Virus record (IMG/VR): IMGVR_UViG_3300015186_000011
Coordinates: 1-26,051 of that record
Strand: one strand, 5' to 3'
DNA from: a virus
Taxonomy: Duplodnaviria; Heunggongvirae; Uroviricota; Caudoviricetes
Length of the DNA stretch: 26,051 bases
Below the pieces are notes generated by a model. That model ran no database searches. It saw only the letters and a list, made by a program, of their open reading frames with translations, and was not told where the DNA came from. Positions within the stretch are counted from its first letter, which is position 1. Every line of letters starts with the position of its first letter. This document shows, in pieces, positions 2,729-23,816 of the stretch. The position numbers were made by a program, and so were the translations under genes.

Positions 2729-3055
2729 ATGAGCAGAAGATATGTCAAGGAGCTGGCTATAGAGTCTGGCACCCCTTTGGGTATCGTTCCTGGCTCCAAC
2801 TATGCCAAGGCTTTAAACCGAGACTCTGTCGTCAAAGTTATATCAAGAGACATGAATATGGTCGGAGACGATCTCAGACGGTCAGAAAATCGTGTTTATG
2901 CTGAATATATAGTAAAGAACGGAAAAAAAATTGCAGCGCCTGCTGGCGGAAAATGGGCAATAGTGACAGGGAAAAACTCAAATGCAAGAGGAAAACCAGA
3001 AGCTAAAGGAATGTCCTTCGACAAATATGCAAAAATCTATTGGGCAACCAAGTGA
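2729..3055 (+). CDS. Hypothetical 108-aa basic protein, first gene of the cassette
   Basis: ATG at 2729 with GAGGT 5 nt upstream (the track's start at 2714 lacks an RBS). I recognise no family. The C-terminus is Lys-rich. Confidence 0.55.
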   Translation: MSRRYVKELAIESGTPLGIVPGSNYAKALNRDSVVKVISRDMNMVGDDLRRSENRVYAEYIVKNGKKIAAPAGGKWAIVTGKNSNARGKPEAKGMSFDKYAKIYWATK

Positions 3056-3530
3056 TAACGAAGAAACTGAGTTCGAGGAAGTTGAGGAAGGGCTAAGTAA
3101 CGAGATCATTCAACACCCAGATGCCTTCACAAGAGTTCTTGATCGCCCTGAAATTCAGGAGATAGTTGTCGCTCACCATGCGTTTCAGGGTCCGCTTCCT
3201 CCCCCCTATCTGCTTCGCGGGTATCAGGATATTTTACCTGATGCCCCCGAACGCATCTTCCAGCTGACGGAGAAGGAGTTTGCTCACCGCCAGAAAATGG
3301 AGGAAAAGGCACTTGACGGGGCTATTAATAGAGATAAACGTGGGCAGTGGTTTGGCCTGAGTGCAACTATTTTTACAGTAGCTTGTGCAACATTATTAGG
3401 TTTAACAGGTCATGAAGTTCTAGCTGGCACAGTGATCGGTACAGTTGTTGCAGTGGCTGGTATTTTTGTTCTCAGACAAAAACCGAGCTTAAAGAAGAAC
3501 GCTGAAGATAAAACACCAGAAGAAGAGTAA
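2982..3530 (+). CDS. DUF2335-like membrane protein (start ambiguous: 2982 or 3027)
   Basis: An acidic N-terminus is followed by HHAFQGPLPPPYLLRGYQDILPDAPERIFQLTEKEFAHRQKME and two C-terminal TM helices. From memory this is the DUF2335 signature. It overlaps the upstream ORF in another frame. Confidence 0.7.
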   Translation: MQEENQKLKECPSTNMQKSIGQPSDNEETEFEEVEEGLSNEIIQHPDAFTRVLDRPEIQEIVVAHHAFQGPLPPPYLLRGYQDILPDAPERIFQLTEKEFAHRQKMEEKALDGAINRDKRGQWFGLSATIFTVACATLLGLTGHEVLAGTVIGTVVAVAGIFVLRQKPSLKKNAEDKTPEEE

Positions 3531-3551
3531 GCCCGCGACGCGGGCTTTTTT
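3531..3551 (+). terminator. Rho-independent terminator
   Basis: GCCCG-cgacg-CGGGC followed by TTTTTT, immediately after the stop codon at 3528-3530. Confidence 0.85.
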
Positions 3552-3623: not shown

Positions 3624-3785
3624 ATGAAAAAAGCATTTGCTGCACTGTTCGTTTTGTTGTCTCTGGTAGCTTCAACTCAGGCCTTTGCCGGTCGTTGTCA
3701 GCACGACAGCGACACTGCTGCTGACGGCTCCCGCTGCGGTGGGCGTTCTGCGGATTCCCGCCCGGGCGGCGGTGGCATTCGTTAA
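3624..3785 (+). CDS. Small secreted peptide (53 aa) with a signal peptide
   Basis: MKKAFAALFVLLSLVASTQAFA|GRCQHDSD...: a typical Sec signal with an AFA-G cleavage site. The mature ~31 aa carries 2 Cys and a Gly-rich tail. TTGACG (3583-3588)-16-TATAGA lies upstream. The track's ORF start at 3552 is unlikely. Confidence 0.5.
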   Translation: MKKAFAALFVLLSLVASTQAFAGRCQHDSDTAADGSRCGGRSADSRPGGGGIR

Positions 3786-4802: not shown

Positions 4803-4877
4803 GTCGTTAATTCCTATACGTAGTTTTACGATACTGAAGCCCTGACGGTCTGGCCACCGTGGGGCTTCGCTGTTTTA
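4803..4877 (+). ncRNA. sar-like antisense RNA (~70 nt) covering the ant RBS and the arc-ant spacer
   Basis: A strong promoter, TTGATA (4768-4773)-17-TATACT (4791-4796), lies inside the first ant codons and points the other way. Predicted TSS is ~4803. A terminator hairpin at 4836-4868 is followed by GCTGTTTTA. Geometry and size mirror P22 sar. Confidence 0.5.
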
Positions 4878-18977: not shown

Positions 18978-19274
18978 TCACTCCTGTTCACTGGCCTCTT
19001 TGGCCATCTTCAAATACTGTTCAGGGCAATGCGCCATAACGCGCTGAAACAGTTCCAGCGCCAGATTGCGTTGCCCCTCATTAAATGCCATTGCCATAGC
19101 GTCCATCGGTGAGATAGCGGAAAACACACGGCCTTTCTCCAGCACCGACCAGACAACGCGACGCCCCTGTTCACTGCTCATGACAAAGCGAATGTCATCA
19201 ATTTCACGCTGTGCCATGTCACGTTGTTTACGGGCGTTTTCTTCTTTCAGTTGATCATCTTCGTAATCTGTCAT
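18978..19274 (-). CDS. Small conserved head-module protein (98 aa)
   Basis: ATGA overlap with the portal stop (19274-19271). Charged helical protein of unknown function. Confidence 0.7.
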   Translation of the reverse strand: MTDYEDDQLKEENARKQRDMAQREIDDIRFVMSSEQGRRVVWSVLEKGRVFSAISPMDAMAMAFNEGQRNLALELFQRVMAHCPEQYLKMAKEASEQE

Positions 19275-20950
19275 TGTGATTGCCCACCCTGACCACTAAC
19301 TGCATTCGCCATAGCTGACAAAACACTCGGATCCGAAGTTTTAGCTTCGCTTAGCGTCTTGGCGCCCTGTGCCGCCGCCATTCCCATCGCCATCATTTGT
19401 TGCTGCTGTTGCTGCTGTGCCCGTTGCTGGCGAGCCTGCTCAACCTGTTCCTGCGGAACAATGACGGTTGGAGACACTCCGGACATATCAGCGAATGCAT
19501 CGATCGCCTGATCAACGTTGAGTTTGTCGAGAGCTTCTGGTTTCGCTTGCGCAAGTTGACCAATGAAGTTGACCGTAGACGCCAGACTGGACAGGCCGAT
19601 AGACTTCTGCGCCTGAGCCATGACGGAAATGTATTCGACCTTCAGGGGCATACCTTCCATCGCGTCAGGCGGTGGCGGCAGCATGTTTTTACGCACCATC
19701 ATCGAGAAAGCGCGGTCAATGAGAGGATTAAGACATTCGTCGTTCAGACGCTCCAGAACCGGCCCCAACATCAGAAGTTTTTCTTCTTTCATTTCGATCA
19801 CCGCTTCAACAGGCATCGAGCGGGTATTGATGTTCTGCAACATCATGAACAGATCGACAAAGTAGGCGCTGTTAATGATTTGACGAGTGTCCTGAATGTC
19901 TGCCACCAAATCTGCTGTACTGGGGTTAACCAGATAAGCAGGCCTGAAGCCATCCTGACCAGTAATCTGATCGATATACGTGATGTCGCCAGGAAGAAGG
20001 GAGGCGCGCTGATTCTTGAGGGAAGTCGGAGCAACCATCGGCGGATTGGTGGCTTTATCAATCAACTGCGACTTGCGCTTCTGGAGAAGCTGCAATGCCT
20101 TAACAGGTCCAAGCGCCAGCATACCCGGGCATGATGATCCATAAACATCTTCGCCATTAACTTCCCAGCGCGGAGCCATAATTGGAAACTCATCAAATCC
20201 GGACTCACGCAACAACTTGTCGTTATCGCCACCAACCTCGTAATAAACCGATTTGAATGGCTTGTTCTTGCTATCCAGCTTCGATGTATCGCGGTCAATG
20301 TTCGGGTAAACCGAATGCATCACGTCAATCCACTTCTCGTAGTTGCCGCTTTCCCACATGCTTTTTACGGATTCGCTGACGTTATTTAGCCCGAACTCCT
20401 GAACAAGCTGACGAACAGTCATAGAGAACTTGCGAAAACAGGTGTCAACACTGCCACGAGGTGAGTTAGCCAGGTAGTAACTGCCTATCGGGAATGGCAT
20501 TGTGCGAATGATGTCCTCGTCATCCTCCAGCACTGCCATTGCACCAGTGCTGTATGTGCCGAGGCTTCCGTATAACTGCGGAAGAGACTGGTAGAGATTC
20601 GACTTATTGAACATATCGTTCATGCGGTTCTGAACTGCCTCAAGCCACAACTTAACAGGGCCATAATCCATCATTTCAGGATCTGGCGTAGCCAGGCGAA
20701 ACCACGGACGCGCGGGGCTTGTGATGCCTGACATCATGCCGCTGGCGAGAGTGCGCGCCGCCATAGTCCCGGTCGAATCAATAATGCGTGTATTGCGCCG
20801 ATCGTTACGGTTGGCCTCAGAAGTCAGAAAGCGGGAACCACGCGGGTTGATGTAATCACTCAACTCGCGCCAGTGCGGCTCGAACGACTGACGCTCGCTT
20901 TCAAGTTGTGCGAACTGTTTGTTCAATCGCTCTTTAGTTGTTTCCGCCAT
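19271..20950 (-). CDS. Portal protein (559 aa)
   Basis: Size ~62 kDa and position upstream of scaffold/capsid. The C-terminal tail is Gln-rich. RBS GGAG lies 8 nt before the ATG at 20950. Confidence 0.85.
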   Translation of the reverse strand: MAETTKERLNKQFAQLESERQSFEPHWRELSDYINPRGSRFLTSEANRNDRRNTRIIDSTGTMAARTLASGMMSGITSPARPWFRLATPDPEMMDYGPVKLWLEAVQNRMNDMFNKSNLYQSLPQLYGSLGTYSTGAMAVLEDDEDIIRTMPFPIGSYYLANSPRGSVDTCFRKFSMTVRQLVQEFGLNNVSESVKSMWESGNYEKWIDVMHSVYPNIDRDTSKLDSKNKPFKSVYYEVGGDNDKLLRESGFDEFPIMAPRWEVNGEDVYGSSCPGMLALGPVKALQLLQKRKSQLIDKATNPPMVAPTSLKNQRASLLPGDITYIDQITGQDGFRPAYLVNPSTADLVADIQDTRQIINSAYFVDLFMMLQNINTRSMPVEAVIEMKEEKLLMLGPVLERLNDECLNPLIDRAFSMMVRKNMLPPPPDAMEGMPLKVEYISVMAQAQKSIGLSSLASTVNFIGQLAQAKPEALDKLNVDQAIDAFADMSGVSPTVIVPQEQVEQARQQRAQQQQQQQMMAMGMAAAQGAKTLSEAKTSDPSVLSAMANAVSGQGGQSQ

Positions 20951-20964
20951 TTCAATGACTCCGG

Positions 20965-21171
20965 TTACTGACCAAGCAGCGTTTTACCGCTGGTATTAGC
21001 GGTTGATGTGTCGCCCTGAGAACCGGTAAGCAGCGTAGAACTACGACCAGCAGCAGCGCGACGGCGACGTGTTTCTTCGTCGCGGGCATCAACAACGGCG
21101 GCATCCTGCTCCTGTGGTGCTGCCTGAACTTCTGGTGTTGCAGGCACTGATGGTGAGCTACCCATGCACAT
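20965..21171 (-). CDS. Small basic/Ser-Thr-rich protein (68 aa) preceding the portal
   Basis: ATG at 21171 with GGAGTCATTGAT upstream, almost the same initiation region as the portal. The RRRRAAAGRSSTLLTG motif looks like small conserved podovirus proteins I have seen. The overlapping 79-aa frame looks random. Confidence 0.5.
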   Translation of the reverse strand: MCMGSSPSVPATPEVQAAPQEQDAAVVDARDEETRRRRAAAGRSSTLLTGSQGDTSTANTSGKTLLGQ

Positions 21172-21198
21172 ATCAATGACTCCGTACGCAATTAAATT

Positions 21199-21276
21199 AT
21201 TACCAATTTAACCACATATGATTTATTTATCGTAGAAGGTTGACATTTGACGCGTGAATTATTACCTTTCAGGTAA
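21199..21276. promoter_or_regulatory. Intergenic control module, copy 2: ATTACC-N5-AACCACATATG (21199-21220), TTGACA (21240-21245), perfect dyad TTACC-tttca-GGTAA (21262-21276)
   Basis: Same motif pair and order as 1202-1267. It lies between the divergent portal operon (minus) and the RNA locus (plus). Confidence 0.5.
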
Positions 21277-21286
21277 CTAAAGAGCT

Positions 21287-21593
21287 CATTCCGGCTACTA
21301 ACCTGACTGGCTTGTCGTTAAATTGAACAGGTGGAGTGAGATTTTATTTTGAGCAGTACGGCGTATGGCACATGCGCCGATAGCGGTCTGGATACGTTTA
21401 AGGGGCACCCTCCCTTGCTCGGGCAAACGAACCAGGTAGCCGGAATGTGCAAGTCGAGCGGTTTTATTCCGCGCACGGGGATTCACCATCCCGGCGATTC
21501 GGTGTGACGCCTCGGAAGAGACGAGGGTACAACGATGAGAGCATTTATGGAGCCGCGACAAAGTGTGGCGCCTTAACAGGCTAAGTGCTCTCA
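21287..21593 (+). ncRNA. Unclassified, highly structured RNA candidate forming the 5' leader of the tRNA transcript
   Basis: No credible ORF. A 12-bp perfect helix pairs 21287-21298 with 21436-21447. Hairpins at 21359-21379, 21417-21424 (C-UCGG-G), 21458-21472, 21478-21492 and 21510-21526. A 9-bp helix pairs 21536-21544 with 21585-21593 and ends 5 nt before the tRNA. The ends are approximate. Confidence 0.5.
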
Positions 21594-21598
21594 GCGTT

Positions 21599-21675
21599 GT
21601 GGCATTAGCTCAGTTGGACAGAGCAACCGCCTTCTAAGCGGTTGGTCGCAGGTTCGAATCCTGCATGCCACGCCA
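21599..21675 (+). tRNA. tRNA-Arg (anticodon UCU, reads AGA), CCA encoded
   Basis: Hand-folded cloverleaf: acceptor GTGGCAT/ATGCCAC, D arm GCTC-AGTTGGAC-AGAGC, anticodon arm ACCGC-CTTCTAA-GCGGT, variable loop TGGTC, T arm GCAGG-TTCGAAT-CCTGC, discriminator G, CCA. Confidence 0.95.
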
Positions 21676-21718
21676 GAATCACGCCTAAGGACCGTGATAC
21701 CAGAAGTTCCAGGTGCTT

Positions 21719-21760
21719 GGCGGTGATGGTTTCCCTTGAAGGACTATCACCGCCCTTTTT
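21719..21760 (+). terminator. Rho-independent terminator T1 after the tRNA
   Basis: GGCGGTGAT (21719-21727) pairs with ATCACCGCC (21746-21754), with an inner TCC/GGA extension, followed by CTTTTT. Confidence 0.75.
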
Positions 21761-21838
21761 ACAGCAGGACGCCATTGCGATGACTTCATGCTGTAAACCC
21801 GTACAGCCACGGAAGGCAGAACTCATTGCTTCCAGTTC

Positions 21839-21862
21839 GCCCGGTTCGCCGGGCATTTTTTT
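21839..21862 (+). terminator. Rho-independent terminator T2, 16 nt upstream of the next start codon
   Basis: GCCCGG-ttcg-CCGGGC followed by A and T7. Confidence 0.85.
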
Positions 21863-21878
21863 AAGGTGAGATTAGACT

Positions 21879-22250
21879 ATGAGTGACAAAGACATTGAAT
21901 CTGAAATTCAGGCTAAAGGTTTAGCCGCGCCGCGCGTTACGCCAGACCATATCGAGAGCATTATTGCTCAGGAGGCATATTTCACAGCAGAAGATGGTGT
22001 CTTTGGCGTAGCCATAAAAGCGAAACATACTGGCGGAGAGGTAAACTACCAGCCGCACGAATCACTTTCTCTGCTGACTTTCTGCGTTCTGGTGCTGCGC
22101 AACGGCTTCACCGTCACCGGAGAGAGCGCCTGTGCAAGCCCGGAAAACTTTGATGCGGAAATTGGTCGGAAGATTGCCCGGCAGAATGCTGTAAACAAAA
22201 TCTGGATGCTTGAAGGTTACTTGCTGAAGCAGAAGTTAAGCGAGCAATAA
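21879..22250 (+). CDS. Gp49 / Sf6 gp66 family phage protein (123 aa), function unknown
   Basis: LTFCVLVLRNGFTVTGESACASPENFDAEIGRKIARQNAVNKIWMLEGYLLKQKL is the family signature as I remember it (Phage_gp49_66). RBS GGTGAG lies 8 nt upstream. Confidence 0.8.
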   Translation: MSDKDIESEIQAKGLAAPRVTPDHIESIIAQEAYFTAEDGVFGVAIKAKHTGGEVNYQPHESLSLLTFCVLVLRNGFTVTGESACASPENFDAEIGRKIARQNAVNKIWMLEGYLLKQKLSEQ

Positions 22251-22254
22251 CACC

Positions 22255-22266
22255 GTGACATGTCAC
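22255..22266. repeat. 12-bp palindrome GTGACATGTCAC (site 2 of 3)
   Basis: An exact copy, 4 nt after the stop of the Gp49-like gene and 4 nt before the terminator hairpin. Confidence 0.9.
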
Positions 22267-22270
22267 AAAC

Positions 22271-22297
22271 AGCCAGCCGATGAGCTGGCTTTGTTTT
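22271..22297. terminator. Bidirectional terminator between the Gp49-like gene and TerL
   Basis: AGCCAGC-cgatga-GCTGGCT with AAAC upstream and TTGTTTT downstream. Confidence 0.8.
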
Positions 22298-22340
22298 ATC
22301 CTCACCAGAGGATATCTCCGTCATTATCCCCGCTAACGGA

Positions 22341-23816
22341 TTAAGCATAGGGATCGTAATCTGTAATGGCCTTGCCTTGCTGGTTCTGCTGCCCGGGAAT
22401 TCGCAGACGCTTAGACACAGGGAACGCAAACGTCAGCAGTAGCGCATCGCCTTTACCCGGCGAACGCCCAAGCCGCTCCTTGATATCTTCCTTCGGTTCG
22501 ATAACGATTTTACCGTCCACTCGAACTTTGTACTCTGCCGCCGACAGGTCGTCCGCTGTTTCCTGGTCATCCAGCATGCCGCCCAGCCTCAGCCATGTCT
22601 TGCATGAGTTGAACATCTCCCCACGCTTGTTGAGCATCTGCGGGTCAGTAGACGCGCCACCGAACGGAACAAGTTGCCATGTGCGCCCCCAACCGTCACC
22701 GATTGACTTCAGCCCGGTACCGTAACCGAAGTCGATGAACACCGCGTCAGCCTGATACTGGTCTTCAAAGTCAGCGATACGCTTTGCCATAATCAGATCG
22801 TCAGTGGTCTTGTTGCCGGTCCACAGCACCTTACTGTGCAGCCCCTGCCGCAGATATATCACCGCGTCATCAACACCGGAGTATGCCGGGTCAACGCCGA
22901 TTATCACCGGAGCATGTGCAACCTGCGCAGCGGTGACCACCCGTTTCATTGCCTCGTCAGTAAGTCCGGTAGGGATAAACTGCAATTCAGATGCATCCGG
23001 GAATATGCCGCGCACACGGATTTTAACGAAGTCGCTATCTTCCCCGTAGTCATCAACCCATTTCTGCAACTGCTGTTTGTTAGTGCCTTCCACCGTCCGG
23101 CTGTCAATCTGCGCAGTTTTCCAGCGGTGTTTATATTTGCGGAAACATTCGCGGAAACGTCCGGTATTACGCGTCGGGTTTCCGAACGCCACCCAGATAA
23201 TCTCAGTGTCTTCGTCCGTTAGCGCACCCTCGGCAACTTCCCACACCAGATCCGCAATGTTCGACGCTTCATCGAATACCACAATGATGCGTTTGCGCTC
23301 GTTGTGTAGTCCGGCGAATGCCTCAGTGTTGTGCTCAGACCAGGGGATTGCGTCAGCTCGCCACCGCTTGTCGTGTCCAGGATCATTGCTGTACATCGCG
23401 GTAGCGGTACAGGTAAACCAGTCTTTCGTGATAGCAAGGTTCGACCACTTGATAATTTCCGGCCAGGTCTTCGTTCGTAGCTGGTTGTCGGTGTTGGCGG
23501 TCACCACAACCTTACAATCCTCGCAAGTGGACATGCCCCAGTTGATCAGCATTGAGATGAATGCGGATTTACCAATACCGTGACCAGAAGCACGTGCCAG
23601 CATAAGCGGCTGATATCGCGTCTCTGGATTCTGCAGGTGATCACGTATCTCTCGGAACGCATCAGCCTGCCATTGACGTGGGCCGGTAGCATGTGCCAGT
23701 TCAGTCCCCTCTTCCCCCCACGGGAACGCATAGAGGGCATAGCCAAGCGGATCGTGAGTGAACCCTGCAATATCCTCGATCAACTGCTCTTCAGGAGATA
23801 ACGCTGTATCTGTCAC
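22341..23816 (-). CDS. terL: Terminase large subunit (491 aa)
   Basis: Walker A-like ARASGHGIGKSAF and Walker B IIVVFDEASN. A C-terminal RNaseH-like nuclease region (IIGVDPAYSGVDDAVIY). GTG start in a GTGA overlap with TerS. Confidence 0.95.
   Translation of the reverse strand: MTDTALSPEEQLIEDIAGFTHDPLGYALYAFPWGEEGTELAHATGPRQWQADAFREIRDHLQNPETRYQPLMLARASGHGIGKSAFISMLINWGMSTCEDCKVVVTANTDNQLRTKTWPEIIKWSNLAITKDWFTCTATAMYSNDPGHDKRWRADAIPWSEHNTEAFAGLHNERKRIIVVFDEASNIADLVWEVAEGALTDEDTEIIWVAFGNPTRNTGRFRECFRKYKHRWKTAQIDSRTVEGTNKQQLQKWVDDYGEDSDFVKIRVRGIFPDASELQFIPTGLTDEAMKRVVTAAQVAHAPVIIGVDPAYSGVDDAVIYLRQGLHSKVLWTGNKTTDDLIMAKRIADFEDQYQADAVFIDFGYGTGLKSIGDGWGRTWQLVPFGGASTDPQMLNKRGEMFNSCKTWLRLGGMLDDQETADDLSAAEYKVRVDGKIVIEPKEDIKERLGRSPGKGDALLLTFAFPVSKRLRIPGQQNQQGKAITDYDPYA

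Follow-up and report, generated by a model that had tools for sequence, protein, structure and literature searches.

The locus between the terminase and portal genes

The stretch of DNA analyzed here (26,051 nucleotides (nt), positions 1 to 26,051 of IMG/VR record IMGVR_UViG_3300015186_000011; hereinafter, the window) is a phiV10/epsilon15-like (Uetakevirus) prophage of Escherichia coli, and the interval between its terminase gene, TerL, and its portal operon encompasses a conserved structured non-coding RNA (ncRNA) that is joined to a tRNA gene. Both flanking gene blocks are on the minus strand, TerL at 22341-23816 and the portal operon as an open reading frame (ORF) of 68 amino acids (aa) at 20965-21171 followed by the portal gene at 19271-20950. 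These bounds (22341 and 21171) are as given in the initial annotation, which was made without database searches and overlooked an ORF of the Gp49/Sf6-gp66 family at 21879-22250 on the plus strand, a piece of neighbouring cargo outside the RNA. All elements of the TerL-portal interval are read from the plus strand. In BLAST searches, positions 21172-21878 (707 bases) share 97.6% identity with phiV10, and identities of up to 99.4% are reached with prophages in complete E. coli genomes. The features of the interval are the following.

21240-21276, plus strand: putative promoter/operator, read from sequence
~21280-88 with 21337-45, plus strand: P0, a tentative, optional upstream helix whose apical part bears the 12-mer CATTCCGGCTAC (21287-98)
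21359-67/21371-79, plus strand: P1 hairpin, 9 bp with a GCA loop
21386-90/21433-37, plus strand: P2, closing helix
21435-21453, plus strand: invariant 19-mer, GGUAGCCGGAAUGUGCAAG / GGTAGCCGGAATGTGCAAG, mostly single-stranded
21456-77, plus strand: P3, variable hairpin, GCGG-UUUUAUU-CCGC in the window, differing in sequence and length by lineage
21478-21504, plus strand: H-type pseudoknot, consisting of P4a (21478-81/21489-92) and P4b, in which CACC (21484-87) in the P4a loop pairs with GGUG (21501-04)
21510-14/21522-26, plus strand: P5 hairpin, 5 bp with the conserved loop GAAGAGA
21529-43/21586-21600, plus strand: P6, long helix of 15 bp that closes a variable apical insert
21599-21675, plus strand: tRNA-Arg(UCU) with encoded CCA
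21678-98, plus strand: H8 hairpin, AUCACG/CGUGAU with the loop CCUAAGGAC
21719-21760, plus strand: T1, long GC-rich hairpin (21719-21754) and U-run, terminator-like, internal to the unit
21758-66/21789-97, plus strand: H9, UUUACAGCA (including the T1 U-run, which pairs with UGUAAA) with UGCUGUAAA, a helix found by RNAalifold
21811-21837, plus strand: H10, GGAAG/CUUCC, and a RyhB-like seed, CAUUGCUUCCAGUU (21824-37)
21839-21862, plus strand: T2, strong intrinsic terminator, GCCCGG-UUCG-CCGGGC followed by A and U7, which ends the RNA unit

A conserved RNA fold supported by covariation

The conserved core spans ~245 nt on the plus strand (21359-21600; 170-245 nt across homologues), and we consider it virtually certain that it represents a real structured RNA family. 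The structure was tested for P1, P2, P4a, P4b, and P5 on an alignment (A3) of 53 representatives clustered below 93% identity. Standard pairs occupy 97.5% of the cells compared to 89.3% in shuffles, both-side changes are found in 12 of the 27 pairs and amount to 109 cells against 24.8 expected, and none of the 500 shuffles matched the paired fraction, the both-side counts, or the covariation score. When the 3' partner is shifted by 1-3 columns, pairing falls to 25-53%. In P1 (97% of the cells paired), 24 of the 53 sequences have A-U in place of G-C, and a change from G-C to C-G is present as well; in P2 (99.6% paired), C-G is replaced by U-A in 12 sequences and G-C by A-U in 3. The two helices of the pseudoknot are each 99% paired, with both-side changes in three of the four pairs of P4a and a C-G to A-U replacement in 5 sequences in P4b. 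Four of the five P5 pairs change on both sides, yielding the variants CCUCG/CGAGG, CCUGG/CCAGG, and GCCGG/CCGGC. Over the 17 positions of P6, 94% of the pairs are canonical among 19 distinct variants and 12 positions show both-side changes, values that are to be read with the caveat that the P6 register was chosen sequence by sequence.

Thus, the check on aligned homologues that was proposed together with the initial annotation yields compensatory changes, and the homologues share no conserved ORF. The hairpins drawn there at 21359-79, 21478-92, and 21510-26 correspond to P1, P4a, and P5 and are backed by the changes among the 53 homologues, and the 9-bp helix at 21536-44/21585-93 is the inner portion of the strongly covarying P6. 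Two other hairpins, at 21417-24 and 21458-72, exist, but the segments that contain them differ among homologues in both sequence and length; the former is the C-UCGG-G hairpin of the P2 apical domain, which is variable in length. The CACC/GGTG pseudoknot had been overlooked. The multi-domain structured plus-strand RNA, physically joined to the tRNA, that was proposed from these elements is genuine and conserved. RNAalifold offers an alternative in which the P1 loop (GGCACAU) pairs with AUGUGC of the 19-mer. The covariation belongs to the local P1 hairpin, and the alternative pairing is neither supported nor excluded because both of its sides are invariant.

A G.U and a U.G pair are invariant in P2, and a U.G pair is near-invariant in P1; given that these pairs become A.C mismatches on the opposite strand, the plus strand is the RNA strand. 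The minimum free energy (MFE) z-score of 21356-21601 is -2.6, with a similar value for the complement strand, and since the complement also folds better than shuffles, thermodynamics by itself decides nothing. No conserved reading frame was found: the spacings between anchors cover all residues modulo 3, and the stop-free antisense frames are spread evenly (41/40/33), which rules out protein coding on either strand, including the 87-aa antisense ORF. The frame analysis of the homologues thus agrees with the earlier statement that the RNA region contains no credible ORF.

Homologues and the invariant 19-mer

BLAST searches detect the core in phages that are not epsilon15-like. Window positions 21358-21520 are ~80% identical to unannotated DNA of P1 and P7, located between trnI (tRNA-Ile CAU) and ban, and positions 21358-21605 match the lambdoid phages cdtI, mEp460, and 2H10 just 3' of the cI repressor gene. 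An alignment of seven phages consists of absolutely identical blocks split by variable hairpins, with compensatory changes visible. The 19-mer has exact copies in at least 120 IMG/VR contigs and 22 enterobacterial genomes, in addition to two chance matches in Firmicutes. Most of the homologues were gathered via the exact 19-mer, through which 123 distinct core sequences were obtained, so that the set is without variation in that segment. The invariance is nevertheless not a collection artefact because all 13 phage records found independently by BLAST, with cores 69-80% identical to that of the window, carry the exact copy. Across backbones that are otherwise dissimilar, no changes are seen in the unpaired 19-mer, the junction nucleotides, or the P5 loop.

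Among 5426 complete E. coli genomes, the core is present in 1839, at 1916 chromosomal and 554 plasmid places. No annotated feature underlies the core match in any of the 12 records listed. The initial annotation could not assign the RNA to any known family, and this holds in a cmscan search against Rfam 15, where no family matches the core. The search was run at the gathering score on 14 other loci as well as on the entire window, and at E<=10 on 21100-22400, where tRNA, sub-threshold RyhB, and chance-level matches were all that was listed. A full-text literature search for the conserved segments, which covered journals other than subscription ones, gave no relevant paper, and the literature on phiV10/epsilon15 RNAs, structured RNAs of prophages, and phage RyhB contained nothing on this element; a preprint on the Pas small RNA (sRNA) concerns other loci.

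Several candidate relationships to host RNAs and proteins were rejected. At 21500-21512, there is a 13-nt sense identity (CGGTGTGACGCCT) to E. coli 23S rRNA near position 1822, which we judge to be due to chance; it needs the base G21509 of the window lineage, where most family members have A. Mimicry of, or antisense pairing with, rRNA was discarded given that this identity and a 10-mer shared with 16S rRNA rest on window-specific bases and that ~2 matches of at least 10 nt are expected. For a CsrA sponge, the GGA-type motifs show no enrichment (11 vs 10.5 expected).

Genomic contexts

In a census of 152 loci, which comprise ~54-55 epsilon15-like, ~75 lambdoid, and ~17 P1-like ones, all loci with a readable context are phage or prophage DNA. 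The core is found in four unrelated phage backbones, where the neighbour genes are unrelated as well. Additional cores were detected with a model, R1, which finds complete cores scoring 133-175 bits in several other phages: after the repressor gene in mEp390 and a Stenotrophomonas phage, after the cI repressor gene in Stx2a_1447, in the portal/terminase gap of the Uetakeviruses Salmonella PAT1 and Enterobacter Tyrion, and after the lysis genes near the genome end in Klebsiella phage SopranoGao. The whole unit measures ~590 nt in the window and is longer, 700-1300 nt, at other loci, and everything 3' of P5 is mosaic and variable. The downstream genes differ between loci or are absent, so that the RNA is not the leader, or a riboswitch, of one fixed downstream gene.

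In the epsilon15-like loci, the core occupies the slot between portal and TerL and is followed either by tRNA-Arg or by a domain closed by GUGGUG...CACCAC. A Gp49-like gene is located 3' of T2 in just 14 of the ~54 loci of this type; in ~40 of the 54, nothing co-oriented lies beyond T2, and the RNA unit converges head-on with TerL. In the lambdoid loci, the core immediately follows the cI terminator and a promoter close to the consensus, that is, it occupies the P_L position. In cdtI, this promoter (TTGACA-16-CATAAT, an 11/12 match to the sigma-70 consensus) is flanked by palindromes, and the entire genome contains a single copy of the core, with none at P_R. The lambdoid early-left genes belong to at least three unrelated sets and start 450-1200 nt beyond the core, and a non-coding leader of 600-1300 nt separates P_L from the first early-left gene (2960-3548 in cdtI, locus L002; 3348-4125 in Stx2a_1447, locus L153). 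None of the first ORFs that were examined resembles N, and an N gene is likewise missing from the annotation of the entire cdtI genome and of the Stx2a_1447 region near the RNA. In a recent analysis of this type of phage (LLS, whose Q is closest to that of phage 2H10), no N homologue was found either, and a put-like RNA antitermination was suggested (PMC12315714). Two annotated antisense ORFs, cdtI orf40 and mEp460_037, overlap the non-coding leader, the latter also the core itself; both are probably spurious. In the P1-like loci, the core is followed by ban and is located inside the C1-controlled ban operon, and P1 itself retains only P1-P5, with P6 missing.

The tRNA and the slot after P6

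The tRNA is called both by ARAGORN, as tRNA-Arg(tct), and by Rfam (RF00005, 73.3 bits against a gathering score of 29), in agreement with the initial annotation. It is directly adjacent to the core in ~40% of the 152 loci and missing from ~60%, and it is not essential to the RNA family. The final two pairs of P6 overlap tRNA positions 1-2, so that P6 abuts the RNase P site. In many of the tRNA-less loci, the folded domain closed by GUGGUG...CACCAC, whose closing helix shares the GTGG/CCAC ends, occupies the tRNA slot (L006, ~2737-2870; also L056, L082, L135, and L144). This domain, 75-283 nt in length in these loci, contains two hairpins with complementary loops, GCUGAU/AUCAGC, replaced in L082 by the compensatory GCUAAU/AUUAGC, and an inter-hairpin insert of variable size; tentatively, it may be an L-shaped mimic of tRNA. 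In P1-type loci, the tRNA is located upstream instead, a tRNA-Ile ending 18 nt before helix P1. Some of the variable inserts harbor canonical T-arm sequences (GGTTCAATTCC or GGTTCGATTCC), at the P6 apex in L005 (SPN1S, ~2330-2360) and L101 (~3730-3760) and in the slot after P6 in L074. Because ARAGORN calls no tRNA there, these inserts look like tRNA remnants.

The upstream stretch and the 12-bp helix

The initial annotation had the RNA region start at 21192. The conserved RNA begins only at ~21358, and the stretch from 21192 to 21276 appears to be promoter/operator DNA common to the divergent portal operon. The putative promoter, which had been overlooked, combines a -35 element TTGACA (21240-45), a 17-nt spacer, and a weak -10 element TACCTT (21263-68) that is overlapped by the palindrome TTACCTTTCAGGTAA (21262-76). 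With 6 copies in the window, at 1253, 1633, 2693, 21262, 24409, and 24427, compared to 0.39 expected, the pattern of this palindrome, TTACC-N5-GGTAA, is in 15-fold excess; the copies other than that at 21262 are found next to the isrK/C4/antirepressor region and 5' of the small terminase gene. The set probably represents operators of the phage repressor. ATTGAC, with which the -35 begins, and most of the palindrome are kept in phiV10, a Klebsiella phage, and SPN1S. Between this stretch and the core, a P6-like upstream helix is clearer in Klebsiella phage ST512-KPC3phi13.3 than in the window, where it is the tentative P0, and is absent from SPN1S.

The 12-mer CATTCCGGCTAC is perfectly complementary to 21436-47, within the invariant 19-mer, and was previously taken to form a 12-bp long-range helix that encloses the downstream hairpins. 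The pairing exists and is rare by chance, a 12-nt complement of the 19-mer being expected ~0.025 times per window, but it is confined to the phiV10 lineage: the upstream arm is present in just 20 of the 54 epsilon15-like loci and was not found in the Klebsiella and Salmonella relatives, in P1, or in any lambdoid member. Given this restriction, and because it overlaps both P2 and the 19-mer, the helix does not enclose the conserved architecture; it appears to be a lineage-specific add-on rather than the scaffold of the fold. The arm variants CATTCCGGTTAC, CATTCCGGTTAT, and CATTCTGGTTAC all remain G.U-compatible. If formed, the helix would mask the 19-mer, and it possibly acts as a cis-acting mask. 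The 12-mer is the sole complement of 10 nt or longer to the 19-mer in the window phage, and none was found in phage cdtI.

The 3' modules and a RyhB-like seed

Across 17 diverse epsilon15-like loci, the elements from H8 to T2 are highly conserved, and the stems of H9, T1, and T2 covary. H8 is near-invariant, with the variants ATCGCAGGAACGCGAT in L022 and ATCACGTAGCCAGCGTGGT in L013 and L107 identified by eye. In T1, which is missing from some members, the innermost stem pair covaries in 5 of the 17 sequences and its neighbour in one. H9 shows A-U to G-C changes in 7 of the 17 sequences, and 7-8 of them have covarying changes in the T2 stem (GG/CC to AC/GU variants). The two terminators that were noted after the tRNA are confirmed as terminator-like hairpins at 21719-21754 and 21839-21854, each with a T-run. 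A short ORF, MTSCCKP, lies over H9-T2 (21780-21869), and its first seven codons recur in relatives; we judge it non-coding because non-triplet indels downstream break the frame.

The RyhB-like seed, which the H10 stem surrounds, had also been overlooked. The RyhB core CAUUGCUUCCAGU (13 nt) is matched at 21824-36, of which 12 nt are ungapped in the pairwise alignment, and this alignment to E. coli ryhB outscores all of 2000 shuffles. In two divergent loci, the window (16.5 bits) and L144 (19.4 bits), the best-scoring Rfam family is RyhB, but both scores are far below the gathering score of 55, so that the module does not qualify as a RyhB member. The motif is found in 35 of the 54 epsilon15-like loci and in no lambdoid or P1 locus. 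The 3' module (21811-21862) shares with RyhB the seed located just upstream of a terminator with a U-tail, but lacks one CAUUGCU repeat and the RyhB 5' half and is phage-borne. Judging from the seed, the module may be a phage-borne mimic of RyhB, which raises the possibility that the phage tampers with the iron-sparing regulation of the host.

Comparison with known systems

The GOLLD and ROOL RNAs, which the initial annotation cited as a precedent, are indeed nearest in kind to the RNA described here, being large, phage-associated, and tRNA-adjacent (PMC5737381). The likeness extends to the location in phages and prophages, often beside tRNA genes with which the RNAs are probably co-transcribed (PMC5737381), and to the multi-helix fold with a pseudoknot and few absolutely conserved unpaired nucleotides. 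Because no covariance model matches (cmscan over 21100-22400 at E<=10, and 14 other loci at the gathering score), the new RNA is not a member of either family. It also differs in size, with a core of ~170-245 nt and one pseudoknot compared to 581 nt or more, in the modularity and variability of its 3' two-thirds, and in the hosts, which are Enterobacterales (and those of Stenotrophomonas phages) rather than Lactobacillales, rumen, or lake lineages. GOLLD and ROOL are further known to form RNA-only multimers (PMC12286853).

The put sites of HK022 resemble the lambdoid members in that the RNA comes first after P_L, there is no recognisable N gene, and terminator-like hairpins follow. The folds and sequences are dissimilar, however: putL and putR were compared with the core by inspection, BLAST was used only for putR against putL, and R1 finds nothing in the HK022 immunity region. 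The new RNA is three times larger than put and contains a pseudoknot, and has no second copy at P_R; in podoviruses and P1, it also forms a terminated unit on its own.

Non-coding transcripts punctuated by tRNAs include the tRNA 3'ETS-leuZ sponge RNA of E. coli, MALAT1/mascRNA, and, in the tRNA punctuation model, mitochondrial transcripts. The RNA described here shares with them a tRNA or tRNA-like fold at the junction between ncRNA segments, such that tRNA-processing enzymes would define the ends, but its flanking RNA is a large conserved fold, and the tRNA can be on either side of it or replaced.

This conserved RNA has escaped annotation in well-studied systems: it is located between trnI and ban in P1 and is also present in Shiga-toxin phages of E. 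coli O157 and in about a third of the complete E. coli genomes. As the first early transcript in lambdoid phages without N, it bears on how such phages manage early transcription. With its interchangeable slot for a tRNA or a folded domain, the RNA provides a tractable system in E. coli for studying the association of large phage RNAs with tRNAs; until now, this association has rested on GOLLD and ROOL, whose hosts have poorer genetics. The function is directly testable because E. coli tools exist, such as P1 c1.100, RNase P temperature-sensitive strains, and rpoC mutants.

Proposed mode of action and alternative explanations

The scenario that we favor is an ncRNA operon of a temperate phage that would be switched on when the repressor leaves the operator. 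One plus-strand transcript from near 21276 would carry the core, the tRNA-Arg(UCU), and two hairpin-plus-terminator modules. Host enzymes would then cut this transcript, RNase P at 21598/21599 and RNase E together with 3' trimming after 21675, to yield a structured 5' RNA (~245-325 nt), a mature tRNA, and 3' sRNA-like pieces. The core RNA would act in trans in early lytic growth, presumably by binding a conserved macromolecule, most likely a host one, via the pseudoknotted junction and the single-stranded 19-mer. The single ~600-nt transcript, its start site, its processing, and the trans action are inferred, and we regard the full model of processing and trans action as an evenly balanced proposition.

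Three considerations enter this scenario. All clearly readable contexts contain a repressor-controlled early promoter (P_L, the C1-controlled ban operon, or the operator in the window), so that the RNA is likely made at the onset of lytic growth. Given that the RNA stands alone in most epsilon15-like phages, moves between unrelated backbones, and has invariant unpaired nucleotides, the RNA itself appears to be the selected product. With tRNAs flanking it on either side and P6 ending at tRNA position +1, we infer cutting by RNase P and tRNA 3'-processing enzymes; as was already suggested in the initial annotation, the most natural expectation would be that RNase P frees the 5' part by cutting where the tRNA begins.

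Several observations weigh against this scenario. The promoter at 21240-21276 is weak when judged against the consensus, and a strict promoter scan made no call there. For an RNase P substrate, a helix that directly adjoins position -1, as P6 does, is unusual. The slot domain lacks a conserved NCCA/CCA end and receives no ARAGORN call, so that its tRNA-likeness is weak. The searches for rRNA complementarity and CsrA-type motifs were negative, with no partner or target identified. Finally, a role in cis fits the lambdoid and P1 loci equally well, the RNA being located there in the leaders of protein-coding operons.

One form of such a cis role, which we consider unlikely, is a leader that makes RNA polymerase terminator-resistant, in analogy to HK022 put, and lets transcription pass T1 and T2 into the early genes. 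The ~75 lambdoid loci in which the RNA comes first after the cI terminator and a P_L-like promoter, with no N-like first ORF, are as expected under this explanation, as are the terminator-like hairpins between the core and the first gene, the lack of a promoter of its own for the Gp49-family gene after T2 in the window, and the presence of the P1 core in the ban leader; in addition, the analysis of LLS found no N homologue and proposed put-like antitermination (PMC12315714). The core is nonetheless unlike putL and putR in sequence and structure, R1 finds nothing in HK022, and 170-245 nt with at least five helices contrast with the ~70 nt and two stems of put (PMC9378689). Antitermination would also leave unexplained why each genome has just one copy and the P_R operon none, why most epsilon15-like units end at T2 with only antisense TerL beyond, and why the SopranoGao copy sits at the genome end after the lysis genes. 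A still less probable alternative is that the core and the tRNA, or its mimic, constitute one uncleaved ornate RNA of the GOLLD/ROOL kind that perhaps assembles into higher-order particles. Under this explanation, P6 would stack directly on the closing helix of the folded domain that always fills the slot, a tRNA or a helix-closed mimic, and the size of the unit (~590 nt, or 700-1300 nt outside the window) is in line with it, as are the phage linkage and tRNA adjacency of GOLLD and ROOL (PMC5737381) and their RNA-only multimers (PMC12286853). It is, however, hard to reconcile with P1, which retains P1-P5 alone, without P6 or a slot domain, and with the mosaic, variable region 3' of P5; no GOLLD or ROOL model matches at E<=10, and the simplest account of a real tRNA whose CCA is encoded is that it undergoes maturation.

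We assign very little credence to the explanation that the conserved stretch is functionless, a structured 5' leader or spacer hitch-hiking with tRNA genes and terminators as mosaic phage DNA. The adjoining tRNAs, the mosaic module boundaries, and the modest z-score of -2.6, similar on the opposite strand, could be accommodated in this way. A mere spacer is not expected to keep the 19-mer, the junction nucleotides, and the P5 loop invariant across dissimilar backbones while its stems compensate; furthermore, ~60% of the loci have no tRNA with which to hitch-hike, and the stretch is kept in 1839 of the 5426 E. coli genomes. 

Returning to the trans-acting RNA, a bolder version, which is speculative and to us doubtful, is that the P1-P5 core with the 19-mer represents a new class of phage RNA effectors, first made after derepression, that directly reprogram a core host machine. 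As part of the same doubtful claim, the candidates would be RNA polymerase, with the RNA as a portable substitute for protein N that also works in trans, or else an enzyme or defence nuclease linked to tRNAs or ribosomes, for which the RNA would serve as a decoy. If true, this would explain the direct repressor control of the RNA in the unrelated P1, Stx2 phages, and epsilon15-like podoviruses.

Other features of the window

Outside the RNA unit, three additional features were identified.

22271-22290: third terminator-like hairpin with a T-run
1684-1866: isrK and C4 antisense RNAs (Rfam), in a P1 immI-like arrangement beside an antirepressor-type ORF
4804-4871: sar RNA (Rfam)

The 8-mer GUAGCCGG is common to the new RNA and the C4 RNA of the window, which we judge to be a chance match. 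The isrK-C4 pair is also present in the lambdoid phages cdtI and mEp460, both of which are carriers of the new RNA.

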